Positions 5,116 to 62,264 of a DNA stretch of 62,264 nt are shown in pieces (positions within the stretch are counted from its first letter, which is position 1; every line of letters starts with the position of its first letter). The translations under genes and the position numbers were made by a program. Under the pieces are notes generated by a model. It saw only the letters and a list, made by a program, of their open reading frames with translations. It made no database searches and was not told where the DNA came from. The stretch is taken from the IMG/VR virus record IMGVR_UViG_3300015078_000002, positions 1 to 62,264 of that record, one strand, 5' to 3'. Source of the DNA: a virus.

Positions 5116-5379
5116 TCACGGAGCCAGTCTACAGCGCAGTTGGCCGACGTCACGCTCCATTGCGAGGTATGCGCCCACGCGCTCGAGCGCCTCTGGGTTG
5201 TACGCGTGGAGCTTGCGGAGGTCAGAGAACGCCCCGCGGAACAGAACGCCCCCGACGCGCAGGTACTCGTTGGCCCAATACAGGATCTGAACGCGCTCTT
5301 GCGCGAGCAAAGCATCGAACGCGGCAACGATGAGGTCGCACTCTCGGGTGTCGGGACGGGTGACGGCAAGCGGCGGCAT
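5116..5379 (-). CDS. Hypothetical protein (87 aa)
   Basis: ATG 5379 preceded by GAGGG. MPPLAVTRPDTRECDLIVAAFDALLAQERVQILYWANEY... Confidence 0.6.
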   Translation of the reverse strand: MPPLAVTRPDTRECDLIVAAFDALLAQERVQILYWANEYLRVGGVLFRGAFSDLRKLHAYNPEALERVGAYLAMERDVGQLRCRLAP

Positions 5380-5902: not shown

Positions 5903-7207
5903 CTACTCCGATTCCCGCTTGGCGACCGTGCACGAGTAGCAAAGCGCCCCAGCCGGCGCAGCGAACTCGACCTCGGTGATCGCCCCGCAACCGGCGCACG
6001 CGCGATCCTCGAATCCCGGCTTGGGTGGCGGCTCGTCCGGCGGAACTTCGGGCTTGGGCTCGACCGGTGCCGGCGCCGCAGCGGGCTTTCCCGTCAGCGC
6101 GCCTTTGAGCGCTGCGGTGCCCTTGCCCGAGCTCGCGCGGGGCGCAACCTTGGCGAGCTCTGCCGGCTGGGTTGGCGGCTTCGGCCCGGCCTGCACCGCC
6201 GGCGTGGGCACCGGCTCCGCGGGTGCGACCGCGACCGGTGCTGCCGTTGGCGTGTCGCCGATTACCTTGCGTCCGCCGATCACCTCCCCGTCCTGCGGCT
6301 TCGCCGGCTTGTCAGCCTCACGCTCCGCGGTGGCCTCGCGTAAAGCGTCCGCCCATGAGGTCTCGCCCTCCTTGATCGCCGCGTGCAGCCCGAGCAGGAG
6401 CTCGCGCTCGGCCGGCGAGATCGTGTCGGTGCTGTGCCCGAGCCACTGCTCAAGCCCCGACGGCTTGACCCCGATCGCGGCGAACGCGTCGAACATCTTG
6501 TTGCGCGCGGCCGTCGGGTCGATCGCCTTGTCGGCGGCGGCGGTGACCTCCTGGCAGATCCGCCGCGCCTCGTCCTGCAGATGCCCGGGCACGATGCGCA
6601 GGATCCCGGTGCGCGACGCCTTCGAGATCTCCGCGTTCTGCTTCGTGCGCACGTCGTCGTCGGTGGCCTCGACGATGAACACGCGGTCCCCGTACGAGTT
6701 CACGCGCTCGCCGAGGGGGCGCTGCCCCTTCCTGAGCTGCTTGCGCTCCACCGTCTTGGGGATCGTGATATCGGTCCGCCATCGCGAGTTGCGCTCGTAG
6801 TCCACCACCTGCACGCGGATCTGACGCACCGCTGCATCGTCGTAGATCACATCGCTCGATGCCTCCATGTTGCCCATGCACCGCATCGCGACCTCGGCGA
6901 ACCGGATCGACAGGCCCTCGATCGTGGTGCCGGCGCGAGGGATCCGGTAGATCGCGACCGCGGCGAACCCCGGGCGCTTGCACTCCGCGATCAGATCCTG
7001 CCGCACGTCGTCGGCGTTGCGCGGCCATCGCTTGGCCATCACGCACGCTGACTCGACGTCGGCGCGCGCCTTGGCGACGAGCGCCTCGATGGCGCCGTTC
7101 TGCGTCTGCAGGCTGCTGCCCTGGAAGTCTTGCCTGGCGATCTGGTTGTCGCGCCGTGGCTGTGTGGTGAGCGCGCCCGATGGCTCGCCGTTCTCGTAGT
7201 CGGTCAT
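5903..7207 (-). CDS. Single-strand annealing protein candidate (RecT/Rad52-type) with C-terminal Zn ribbon
   Basis: ATG 7207 in an ATGA overlap with the exonuclease gene. ...EGLSIRFAEVAMRCMGNMEASSDVIYDD... A Pro/Ala-rich linker is followed by CAGC...CYSC. The call rests mainly on pairing with the YqaJ exonuclease. Confidence 0.5.
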   Translation of the reverse strand: MTDYENGEPSGALTTQPRRDNQIARQDFQGSSLQTQNGAIEALVAKARADVESACVMAKRWPRNADDVRQDLIAECKRPGFAAVAIYRIPRAGTTIEGLSIRFAEVAMRCMGNMEASSDVIYDDAAVRQIRVQVVDYERNSRWRTDITIPKTVERKQLRKGQRPLGERVNSYGDRVFIVEATDDDVRTKQNAEISKASRTGILRIVPGHLQDEARRICQEVTAAADKAIDPTAARNKMFDAFAAIGVKPSGLEQWLGHSTDTISPAERELLLGLHAAIKEGETSWADALREATAEREADKPAKPQDGEVIGGRKVIGDTPTAAPVAVAPAEPVPTPAVQAGPKPPTQPAELAKVAPRASSGKGTAALKGALTGKPAAAPAPVEPKPEVPPDEPPPKPGFEDRACAGCGAITEVEFAAPAGALCYSCTVAKRESE

Positions 7208-8367
7208 TCTGGCTCCTTCGGTTCCTTGGGTTCGCGTGGCGCACGCCACGACTTGGGGAAATTGAACGGCCGCTTGCCGTCGATCTCGATGGTGTACGCG
7301 GCATCGGTGCGCGCGTTGATCTCGTCGAGCGTGGTTTGTAGCACGGATACGAGTTGGGATATCTCGCCAGCGGTGATCGCGGCTCGAGCGCTGCACCCAA
7401 TCGGCGCGTGGTCGCCCGCCGACTTGAGGCAGATCAGCGCGCGCTCGATCTCGCCTCGCTTCGCCGACAGCGCGAGTCTGGCATCGGCGCGCACGTCGTT
7501 GGCGATCCCCGCGAAGTCGATCTTGCGCGTCGCCTTGCTGCGCTTCCAGGTGACCTTCTCGGGCCGCCCCTTCCCGTTCTTCCACGTGAGCCCCGCGTTC
7601 TCACCGATCTTGAGCTTGAGCTTCTGGATGATCAGCGCGTGCTCGTCGTCGAGGTCGGCGCCCATCGCCCGCACCTTCTTCGCCCGCTCGATCAGCGTGA
7701 ACGTGTCGTTGTCGTCGCCGATGTCGATCAGCACGTCGGTGTTCGCCTTGTGCCGCGCCTTGAGCCACGCGTCGAACGACTCGGAGCCGTCGGGGTCCGG
7801 CACCGCGCCGCCGCGCACGTTGTCGATCAGGAACCGCTCCGCGCGCTCGCGCAGCATCTCGATCAGCTCGTCGTCGCGGTCGATGATGTAGTCCTCCGGC
7901 TGGTTGTCGATGTACGCCACGAGATCCCATCGCGACAGCCCGGTCACACCCATCGACCACACGCACTGCACGAGCTCCCACGGCGGCACCTCGTCGGTCC
8001 CGGGATCACCGTAGAGGTGGGCGACGCGGAACGTGTGATCCTTGATCTCAAGGCCCCGCACAGGCACCGCGCCGTCGTATCCGATGCCGTCCGGGGTGCA
8101 CATCTGCCAGCGCGCGTCCGGGTGCCCGAGCGTGCCAGGGACGTCGATTCTCAGCCCGCTGCGCTCCTCGTAGTCGCGTCGAATGACGGGTTCGACGAGG
8201 TCGCCCCAGCGCGTGCGCTTGTTGCCTGCGAACGGCTGGGCCTCGCCCCGTTTCTCACGCCAGACGTCGATCGCCGAGCGATAGGGATTGGCCCCGATGA
8301 TCGCCGCGACGTCGGTGGCGGTGATCCCTTCGAGGCGCCGAGCGAGCTGGTCGGGTGAGAGAGTCAC
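7204..8367 (-). CDS. YqaJ-like (lambda Exo-type) recombination exonuclease with long C-terminal extension
   Basis: GTG 8367. ...GITATDVAAIIGANPYRSAIDVWREKRG... is the typical YqaJ N-terminal signature. About 170 extra C-terminal residues. Confidence 0.8.
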   Translation of the reverse strand: MTLSPDQLARRLEGITATDVAAIIGANPYRSAIDVWREKRGEAQPFAGNKRTRWGDLVEPVIRRDYEERSGLRIDVPGTLGHPDARWQMCTPDGIGYDGAVPVRGLEIKDHTFRVAHLYGDPGTDEVPPWELVQCVWSMGVTGLSRWDLVAYIDNQPEDYIIDRDDELIEMLRERAERFLIDNVRGGAVPDPDGSESFDAWLKARHKANTDVLIDIGDDNDTFTLIERAKKVRAMGADLDDEHALIIQKLKLKIGENAGLTWKNGKGRPEKVTWKRSKATRKIDFAGIANDVRADARLALSAKRGEIERALICLKSAGDHAPIGCSARAAITAGEISQLVSVLQTTLDEINARTDAAYTIEIDGKRPFNFPKSWRAPREPKEPKEPE

Positions 8368-61944: not shown

Positions 61945-62064
61945 TCAGCGCCGGCCGCGGAGCCAGTCGACCACCGACCGCACCGCGACTCGCTGAAGAA
62001 ACAGAGCGCCCCACACGAAGCTGGCGAAGCCGCGCCAGAACGGCTCTTGGTCCGGTGCCATCAT
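61945..62064 (-). CDS. Small hypothetical protein (39 aa)
   Basis: ATG 62064 in an ATGA overlap with the repeat-protein stop. MMAPDQEPFWRGFASFVWGALFLQRVAVRSVVDWLRGRR. Confidence 0.4.
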   Translation of the reverse strand: MMAPDQEPFWRGFASFVWGALFLQRVAVRSVVDWLRGRR

Positions 62065-62264
62065 CCGACCGCGAGCAGCGCGATGTCCGCGATCGACATC
62101 CCCTCGATCCCCTCTCGCGCGGCGCAGGTGACCAGCGCGACCGCCGGGCCTCCGATCTCTTGCTCTGGAAAGCCGTTGCCGTAGCCGTCGCCGTCGCCGT
62201 CGCCGTTGCCGTAGCCGTCGCCGTCGCCGTCGCCGTTGCCGTAGCCGTAGCCGTCGCCGTCGCC
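62061..62264 (-). CDS. X-Gly dipeptide-repeat protein, 3' portion (62210-62264 duplicates 1-55)
   Basis: Reads ...GDGDGDGYGNGFPEQEIGGPAVALVTCAAREGIEGMSIADIALLAVG, stop TGA 62063-62061. Confidence 0.6.
   Translation of the reverse strand, partial: GDGDGYGYGNGDGDGDGYGNGDGDGDGYGNGFPEQEIGGPAVALVTCAAREGIEGMSIADIALLAVG
62172..62264. repeat. Tandem hexanucleotide repeat (GCCGTN)n, continuation of 1-220
   Basis: Direct reading. GCC GTT GCC GTA GCC GTC ... runs to the window end. Confidence 0.95.

Follow-up and report, generated by a model that had tools for sequence, protein, structure and literature searches.

The viral contig IMGVR_UViG_3300015078_000002 of IMG/VR, analysed here over its whole length of 62,264 bp (66.5% GC; hereafter the window), carries across its two ends a minus-strand gene whose product is built largely of alternating X-Gly dipeptides. 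The 55-nt termini of the window are exactly identical, and both copies lie within the hexamer tract of this X-Gly gene. When one copy is trimmed, the open reading frame (ORF) reads from 235 to 1 and on from 62209 to 62061 (384 nt, 127 aa), recovering the junction-spanning gene of the original prediction, which had been made from the letters of the window; joined end to end without trimming, the window loses the frame, since 55 is not divisible by three. Comparison with relatives identifies the X-Gly gene as a real and conserved member of an undescribed phage family, standing nearly always directly after a gene of the DUF6948 family. We consider it very probable that the window copy is a translated gene of the early/replication module, coupled after DUF6948 and encoding a five-residue head, a disordered X-Gly array and a 36-residue two-helix domain.

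All parts of the gene lie on the minus strand. The GTG start codon (235-233) opens the N-terminal peptide V/MSALV (221-235) and overlaps the TGA of the upstream gene (234-232), and the pattern M/V-S-A-[LI]-x is kept in soil relatives. A Shine-Dalgarno-like motif, AAGAGGAAG, can be read at 238-246, with its GAGG core 5 nt 5' of the start. The head is followed by 43 unbroken NAC-GGC units, then by FPEQEIGGPAVALVTCAAREGIEGMSIADIALLAVG and the stop. Of the 258-nt array, the 5' part, from unit 1 into unit 37, occupies positions 1-220 (with 1-55 repeated at the other window end), and the final 38 nt, at 62172-62209, meet position 1 once the overlap is trimmed. The exact copy of positions 1-55 at 62210-62264 is an assembly overlap, a k-mer-sized terminal redundancy of a circular path, and not extra sequence; the frame requires its removal. 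The C-terminal domain (62064-62171; FPEQEIGG...SIADIALLAVG, 36 aa) was delimited by family alignments and profile search and is modelled as two short helices, and the TGA stop (62061-62063) overlaps the ATG of the next ORF (62064-62062). The X-Gly gene overlaps each neighbour by 4 nt, start with upstream TGA and stop with downstream ATG, and this translational coupling on both sides, foreseen in the original prediction, is kept in relatives.

On recount, the predicted composition of MSALV-(X-G)43 proved exact, with X codons TAC 18 (Tyr), GAC 13 (Asp) and AAC 12 (Asn) and the Gly codon GGC in 43 of 43 units; Tandem Repeats Finder reports a period-6 array at each window end (scores 305 and 137/179). 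The protein has a mass of 12 kDa, a net charge of -17 and a pI of about 4. Five of the six reading frames are open across the tract, so that an open frame is by itself no evidence for coding, and the case for coding rests on comparative evidence. An Arg-rich frame, shifted by one relative to the X-Gly frame, extends over 61948-254 on the minus strand and continues stop-free into the frame of the downstream 39-aa ORF; it is probably a by-product of high GC content and the 4-nt overlap.

The genes of the window are nearly all on the minus strand. Directly upstream of the X-Gly gene lies its 89-aa DUF6948 (PF22253) partner (232-501), which itself has no Pfam match although relatives pass the cut-off, and which is modelled as an Sm/SH3-like small beta-barrel; also on the 5' side are a replication-initiator-like ORF and a G39P-type helicase loader. 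Directly downstream is the coupled hydrophobic ORF (61945-62064, minus strand; 39 aa, MMAPDQEPFWRGFASFVWGALFLQ...), with a small hydrophobic ORF at the same place in several relatives, not all, and the 3' side further holds small hydrophobic ORFs, an SNF2 helicase, a methyltransferase (methylase) and a beta-clamp. YqaJ, DUF2303, an SU10-like capsid protein, Mu-F and Baseplate-J are encoded elsewhere, and the window is that of a tailed phage. Its closest DNA relatives in INPHARED have only methylase/helicase segments in common with it, neither an Rfam nor a tRNA scan of the window gave a match, and a search for the host through prophages, made as two scans of 185,579 species genomes, one with the C-terminal domain and one with DUF6948 patterns, likewise found nothing. 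In temperate relatives, the DUF6948/X-Gly pair sits in the early rightward operon, 3' of repressor/Cro-like genes and 5' of recombination genes. Other coding repeats occur nearby. Within the replication-initiator-like protein of the window (minus-strand ORF 1988-2983), positions 2466-2534 form a second in-frame tandem repeat of GGATCC/GGAACC, with periods of 6, 12 and 24, which encodes PDPVPDAAPDPVPD..., and the related contig L003 has two further coding arrays, at 5175-5355 and 7127-7340, (Ala-Asp)n-rich and (AARDAAWD)n, at most 1.2 kb from its X-Gly gene. The early region of L003 seems prone to coding repeats.

A family of X-Gly genes behind DUF6948

Relatives were found in metagenomes by synteny, through the upstream 89-aa protein, and by a profile of the C-terminal tail. 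Starting from the upstream protein, two IMG/VR contigs were reached, L002 and L003, whose following gene again encodes an X-Gly protein with a homologous tail. An exhaustive HMMER scan of 1.84 billion representatives with the tail profile returned 18 clusters at E<=0.001, of which the weakest is probably a spurious match. The soil-clade tail consists of [FY]PEQE[IL]GG and about 30 further residues with conserved RE and [ST][IL]xD[IL]xx[LM]A, a pattern that the window protein fits. Frame, start context and 4-nt overlaps are the same in the soil contigs L002, L003, L009, L014, L016 and L020 and in the nanopore contig L028, and in each of the long contigs opened at 51% to 77% DUF6948 identity the X-Gly gene comes next after DUF6948. 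The arrays comprise 33 units in L014, 26 in L020, 52 in L028, 30 in L002 (X = D/Y/H/Q, with Gly encoded by GGG throughout) and 7 only in L003 (X = Tyr, Ser or Arg). In L016, with 37 units, an HNH endonuclease gene is inserted between DUF6948 and the X-Gly gene. This HNH/endonuclease VII-like insert (L016 2783-3170) falls exactly at the DUF6948/X-Gly junction, which elsewhere is a 4-nt overlap.

Three cultured or complete phage lineages carry DUF6948 by tblastn against INPHARED, and in all three the X-Gly gene is the next one. They are Rheinheimera phage Barba (vB_RspM_Barba; gp017, e.g. QCQ57868.1, 69-83 aa, 115 genomes), Rhodobacter phage RcapNL (gp46, RcapNL_00046, AFA44886.1, 75 aa) and Myoviridae sp. 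ctOK67 (MW202613; UOF79295.1, annotated 'lamprin', 104 aa). Their proteins are small, consist almost wholly of (Tyr/Asp/Asn-Gly)n and have a unique N-terminal head of 12-24 residues instead of the PEQEIGG domain; the arrays of gp017 and gp46 contain neither Lys nor Arg. INPHARED tblastn with the C-terminal domain found no match. The genes are built from the same GGC-NAC hexamer as in the window and lie in an early/replication-side operon. The core common to the family is therefore the array, and the helical tail belongs to the soil clade alone. The repeat goes unremarked in the paper on the Barba genome.

Adjacency to DUF6948, on the same strand and coupled or close, holds for the window, L002, L003, L009, L013-L020 and L021-L028, with L030 as the exception. 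Most loci were found through DUF6948, and at these the X-Gly gene is always present; among the five loci found through the X-Gly tail with a readable upstream gene, that gene is DUF6948 in four, the fifth being L030. At all loci the tract is coding in the X-Gly frame, with the partial exception of L018, where DUF6948 is followed at ~319-372 by a 17-aa remnant ORF, VTGDGNGDGYGYGDGDG*, of 7 units and no end domain. Homologues with a non-coding tract, which the original prediction had named as counter-evidence, thus did not turn up. The first reading of the window had recognised no described phage family in this architecture, and the databases agree: PHROGs gave no match to the window protein, and the single Pfam match (TrAA12, E 1.4e-8) is compositional, since the repeat aligns to a low-complexity part of that profile only. 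The 'lamprin' label of the MW202613 protein likewise looks compositional rather than homologous, with only a Gly/Tyr-rich composition in common.

Several odd members were considered individually. P0133 was rejected as a natural DUF6948-repeat fusion, being on a nanopore contig with frameshifts inside DUF6948, where the true layout is the usual GTGA-coupled pair. The 'RRQHRRPDRPR' of P0002 and P0004 was rejected as frame-shifted repeat units: its +1 frame gives EGASIEDLTALV, an out-of-frame copy of the segment of C-terminal helix 2, and in L030 (1501-1761, P0002) the array contains this out-of-frame duplicate (EGASIEDLTALV in +1; RRQHRRPDRPR in frame). The anti-CRISPR gene AcrIC9 of RcapNL appears to belong to a different three-gene directon and is probably not the X-Gly gene, identities not having been checked directly. 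In L029 (1501-1758, P0134), an 85-aa ORF joins DUF6948 residues 1-52 in frame to the two-helix C-terminal domain with no repeat between them, the junction lying near the similar peptides GEIALxGP and QEIGGP, and this ORF is possibly a deletion derivative. In P0129, the array is preceded by an N-terminal extension bearing a lipoprotein-like signal (…LAGC…), and this member may be a true exported variant or a chimeric call.

Composition, expression and turnover of the array

In a census of 613 units from 25 arrays, X was Tyr in 247, Asp in 166, Asn in 98, Ser in 61 and His in 24 (97% together). Each other residue occurred at most four times, Glu, Val and Leu were absent, and there were no aliphatics, even though Glu, Lys, Val, Ala, Ile, Thr and Cys are each one mutation from the X codons used. 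The exclusion of His that the original prediction had pointed out holds for the window copy and fails as a family rule, as relatives contain CAC/His units. All family proteins are net acidic, and nearly every array mixes Tyr with Asp, the 7-unit array of L003 excepted. In L002 and L017, GGG takes the place of GGC, so that Gly is kept while the DNA changes, and every lineage retains the X-Gly frame, a start codon and conserved end-pieces in that frame. The protein, and not the DNA alone, appears to be under selection, and these data support selection that maintains a mixed aromatic, acidic and polar composition of the array.

AlphaFold2 modelling of the window protein from a seven-sequence alignment gave a pLDDT below 50 over residues 1-96, and helices at 99-111 and 118-126 with a pLDDT of about 60; the X-Gly array is thus predicted to be intrinsically disordered. 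No signal peptide or membrane segment was found in the window protein or in nearly all relatives. Expression can be read from the published infection transcriptome of Barba18A (Table S2, PMC9305737), in which gp017, whose gene numbering we verified against the sequence record, is transcribed with the early/replication cluster at a log counts per million (CPM) of ~10, highest at the first two time points.

Array length changes rapidly. Unit number ranges from 7 to 52 across the family, and a 1-kb segment across Barba gp017 maps to 1001, 1007, 1031 or 1043 nt in different Barba genomes, the differences sitting in gp017 and the flanks being >99% identical within each species. Barba15S (71 aa) has one YG unit more than Barba1A (69 aa), and Barba31A (83 aa) two DG units more than Barba19A (79 aa); P0002 and P0004, and likewise L007 and L008, have identical end-pieces or C-terminal domains yet different arrays. 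All observed length differences are in-frame multiples of 6 nt, supporting the view that the array gains and loses whole units through replication slippage or unequal recombination, always in frame. The tract behaves as the in-frame slipped-strand locus that had been expected from the 6-nt periodicity, in Barba isolates as in soil relatives that differ in unit number between the same flanks. The accompanying label 'contingency-type' does not hold in its on/off sense, because with a unit of 6 nt slippage alters length only and never switches the gene on or off.

The DUF6948 partner and the role of the array

The subfamily of the upstream protein comprises 2,216 clusters at 90% identity, many members of which pass the Pfam threshold for DUF6948. 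No paper in the literature mentions DUF6948. The AlphaFold2 model (pLDDT 95) has the order b1-b3, helix, b4-b5 and C-terminal helix, with no N-terminal helix. All but two of the 50 PDB matches listed for this model are Sm/LSm or Sm-like structures (3by7, Lsm1-7, SmB/D3, SmAP and one NatC subunit), the other two being chains of the designed nanoparticle TIP60, and the scores are modest (TM 0.50-0.63, E 1e-3 to 6e-3). Matches in BFVD were DUF6948 proteins, one 'Sm-like domain-containing protein' and one 'RNA binding protein'. By sequence, four DUF6948 members gave no Pfam LSM or Hfq match at E<=1, a DUF6948 profile search against PDB sequences returned nothing at E<=10, and PDB sequence searches with the DUF6948 and X-Gly tail profiles were empty or noise. 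With modest confidence, DUF6948 is predicted to be an Sm/SH3-like small beta-barrel, one that is not filed as an Sm protein.

We propose that the array may act as a flexible, multivalent acidic/aromatic tail, which the short helical end-piece would dock to a partner, most obviously to the co-expressed DUF6948 barrel. The Tyr/Asp array could then be a nucleic-acid mimic that gates a nucleic-acid-binding surface or competes for it, in the manner of the acidic disordered tails of Hfq, or, as an alternative to mimicry, could drive multivalent self-association as a scaffold. The number of units would set the valency. That the array works with the DUF6948 barrel through this specific partner and tail mechanism is a tentative proposal, and one we would sooner expect to be revised than confirmed. 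The account as a whole, from translated early gene to multivalent tail, is the best explanation of the locus that we have, with a chance of being right that falls a little short of even.

A number of points weigh against this account. Contact of the X-Gly protein with DUF6948 is putative; most loci were ascertained through DUF6948, and at the X-Gly locus L030 the upstream gene is a different one. Barba, RcapNL and MW202613 lack the C-terminal domain, and docking via the C-terminal helices therefore cannot be general. A strong net negative charge and the lack of basic residues disfavour simple homotypic condensation. The Sm-like assignment is one of fold similarity at borderline E-values, without a Sm/Hfq sequence match, and in fold searches small beta-barrels match promiscuously. 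The Barba18A expression is that of the RNA of a homologue, not of the protein of any family member. Finally, GGC-NAC is kept at the nucleotide level in a phage of 38% GC, for which a protein-only account needs concerted evolution.

A further extension of the proposal is speculative and, in our judgement, decidedly improbable: that DUF6948 and the X-Gly protein are the two components of a widespread, hitherto unnoticed phage module. This would amount to a split Sm-like protein whose detachable acidic/aromatic dipeptide tail, tunable by slippage, mimics nucleic acid or nucleates a condensate, and it would act on RNA or DNA transactions of host or phage early in infection. GGC-NAC would be held at the nucleotide level for a second role of the DNA or of the codons, whose four NAY amino acids are all read by queuosine-modified tRNAs. 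If this were true, such modules would be far more common than databases suggest, with short-read assemblies breaking in the tract.

Among the alternatives, an unlikely one that nonetheless accounts for several observations is that the repeat is a slippage tract which expands selfishly and is tolerated. The array would then be a neutral linker, and function would lie solely in the short peptide outside the repeat, in the window the two-helix C-terminal domain. Such a linker would explain why the gene is retained while unit number varies roughly sevenfold (7 to 52), and the L029 derivative, in which DUF6948 residues 1-52 are joined to the C-terminal domain with no repeat, and L018, where only the 17-aa repeat remnant is left, are what it would lead one to expect; uniform synonymous codons within arrays also indicate fast turnover. 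It sits badly with the array being the sole part common to all lineages, given that the end-pieces of Barba, RcapNL and MW202613 differ, and with the persistence of arrays down to ~41% DUF6948 identity and in phages with hosts from Alpha- and Gammaproteobacteria to those of high-GC soil phages. Moreover, the mixture of Tyr and Asp is kept in nearly all arrays, whereas pure concerted evolution would homogenise them.

The codons of the Barba array raise a second alternative. The Barba locus has 38% GC, with a GC content at third codon positions (GC3) of 34% in its DUF6948 gene and 39% GC over the first 36 nt of gp017, and neighbouring genes favour GGT, TAT, AAT and GAT. The array itself (Barba1A gp017, L023 2747-2956) has a GC3 of 100% and the same GGC-TAC/AAC/GAC units as the window at 66.5% GC. 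Retention of GGC-NAC may be due to concerted evolution by slippage that freezes a founder unit, to selection on C-ending codons, or to a role at the DNA or RNA level, all three being possible; in Barba19A, a TAT-GGT variant unit has itself been copied three times. The most frequent NAC codons are those for Tyr, Asp, Asn and His, and these four amino acids make up exactly the set read by queuosine-modified tRNAs; in the relative L028 (1070-1558), a DpdA 7-deazaguanine transglycosylase-like gene lies ~0.5 kb upstream. The overlap with the queuosine codons is possibly a coincidence, because one variable first base yields the same set of amino acids.

On the DNA-level alternative, the DNA or mRNA repeat itself would be the functional entity, as a protein-binding array or a replication, recombination or RNA element, and the ORF would be incidental. 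The Barba array just described fits this well, as does within-array variation that falls almost entirely at one nucleotide, with synonymous variants rare, in a gene inside the replication module. We nevertheless think it quite unlikely. L002 and L017 use GGG throughout instead of GGC, and TCC (Ser) makes up 10% of units, so that 'ACGGC' is not invariant; the X-Gly frame, start, coupling and head or tail peptides are kept in all lineages despite five open frames; the residues tolerated at X form a chemically coherent set from which Glu, Lys and aliphatics are missing, although a single mutation would produce them; and Rfam found nothing. A GC-rich GGC-NAC array in a 38%-GC genome poses a sharp question of protein- versus nucleotide-level selection in coding tandem repeats.

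A third alternative is that the tract, or its length and order, is an artefact of assembly, such that the true locus may differ or be heterogeneous. The contig broke inside the tract and was closed through the 55-nt overlap, although the array takes up 258 of 62,209 bp and a random break there would be improbable (~0.4%). Six other contigs terminate within the tract (L001, L007, and, after DUF6948, L013, L015, L017 and L019), L006 ends 4 nt before the start codon, and an independent Logan contig, 100% identical across 6,311 nt, stops 44 nt into the X-Gly ORF. Run ERR4837144 contains the same phage. Exact repeats inside the array reach 47 nt, which is longer than 31 and shorter than 55. From its length alone we infer that the 55-nt overlap is the residue of a de Bruijn assembler on a circular path at k=55. 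At that k every 55-mer of the trimmed tract is unique, so the path is unambiguous; the trimmed join is in frame with the conserved C-terminal domain, and isolate genomes, the nanopore contig L028 (52 units) and long metagenome contigs contain intact arrays of comparable size. The tract is not an assembly artefact, and we judge this alternative in its full form very unlikely. Since short-read contigs repeatedly end in the tract, the number of 43 units, obtained from a short-read assembly that broke there, is provisional. The 'direct terminal repeat' (DTR) of the window is itself a 55-nt piece of the array, and short-read contigs of several projects end in such tracts. Short-read assemblers systematically end contigs in the tract, which leaves viral metagenome catalogues with false 'ends', overlaps resembling DTRs and absent genes, and completeness calls based on DTRs, as well as gene catalogues, are biased at such loci.

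Least probable by our reckoning is an exported or structural protein (a silk- or amyloid-like beta material, a Ca2+ or metal binder, or an envelope factor), for which the silk-like beta-strand pattern of alternating X-Gly, the metal ligands Asp, His, Tyr and Asn and the lipoprotein-like extension of P0129 can be cited, and against which stand the missing signal peptide and membrane segment in the window protein and nearly all relatives, the setting among replication genes with early/replication rather than late structural transcription of the Barba homologue, the absence of a 9-residue RTX periodicity and of hydrophobic core positions, and the lack of an ordered AlphaFold2 model. The metal- or Ca-binding and envelope-interacting roles floated in the original prediction are unsupported on the same grounds of signal peptide, module and transcription.

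Comparison with known systems

Several known elements were considered and set aside. A collagen-like repeat has Gly at every third residue and not at every second, as here. An RTX/beta-roll Ca2+ repeat is a nonapeptide (GGxGxDxUx, U being hydrophobic), against a window period of 2 residues (6 nt), and the arrays have no aliphatics. A diversity-generating retroelement was rejected because the repeat scan of the window shows no second array and only the first adenine-capable position varies, the second A being invariant in 43 of 43 units; the search for a reverse transcriptase was not exhaustive. The segment after PEQEIGG has Arg, Glu, Glu and Asp, no basic C-terminal cluster and two short amphipathic helices in the model, unlike a PEP-CTERM/GlyGly-CTERM sorting signal, and the GG motif is C-terminal, following Pro-Glu-Gln-Glu, and not that of a double-glycine leader (LSxxELxxIxGG).

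With simple-sequence contingency loci, the window repeat has in common a perfect short tandem repeat in an ORF, polymorphic in copy number among near-identical isolates. It differs in its 6-nt unit, which allows no frame switching or phase variation, only protein length and valency being changed. The collagen-like (Gly-X-Y)n repeats of phage tail fibres are likewise Gly-periodic and of slippage-variable length, but they have a period of 3, belong to late structural proteins and form a triple helix, whereas X-Gly has a period of 2 and none of these features. FUS-like and prion-like domains, lamprin and the GY repeats of silk resemble the array in their dominance of Gly, regular Tyr with Asn or Ser, predicted disorder and multivalent aromatic 'stickers'. 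In contrast to them, the window array contains ~15% Asp (in the family as a whole, Asp takes 27% of X positions), lacks basic residues and is strongly negative, and X-Gly proteins are set apart by their strict dipeptide period and their place in a phage replication module.

The analysis defines a conserved two-gene phage module of a putatively Sm-like DUF6948 barrel and a Tyr/Asp/Asn-Gly repeat protein. It can be tested directly, since two phages that carry it are cultivable: Barba18A, with Rheinheimera sp. BAL341 as host, and RcapNL, with Rhodobacter capsulatus SB1003. It also offers a clean natural case of a predicted disordered protein whose valency would be tuned by in-frame hexamer slippage, with polymorphism among 115 isolates of one phage.

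The closest likeness is to Hfq and the Sm proteins. Eukaryotic SmD1 and SmD3 carry (Arg-Gly)n dipeptide tails. The disordered acidic C-terminal domain of Hfq competes with RNA for the Sm core (PMC5606850), and Hfq of Acinetobacter baumannii has GGFGGQ repeats and an acidic tip, with fewer repeats impairing its function (PMC11617691). As in these proteins, a small, predicted Sm-like barrel is associated in the phage module with a long disordered Gly-rich repeat tail, which is acidic as in Hfq. The phage tail differs in being the product of a separate, coupled gene and not a covalent extension, and its repeat is a strict Tyr/Asp/Asn dipeptide rather than GGFGGQ or Arg-Gly, of opposite charge to (Arg-Gly)n. 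The DUF6948 barrel is similar in fold only (TM 0.5-0.63, no sequence match), and any nucleic-acid binding by it is putative. The system is best rated as a slippage-tuned, putatively disordered repeat tail associated with a small Sm-like barrel.

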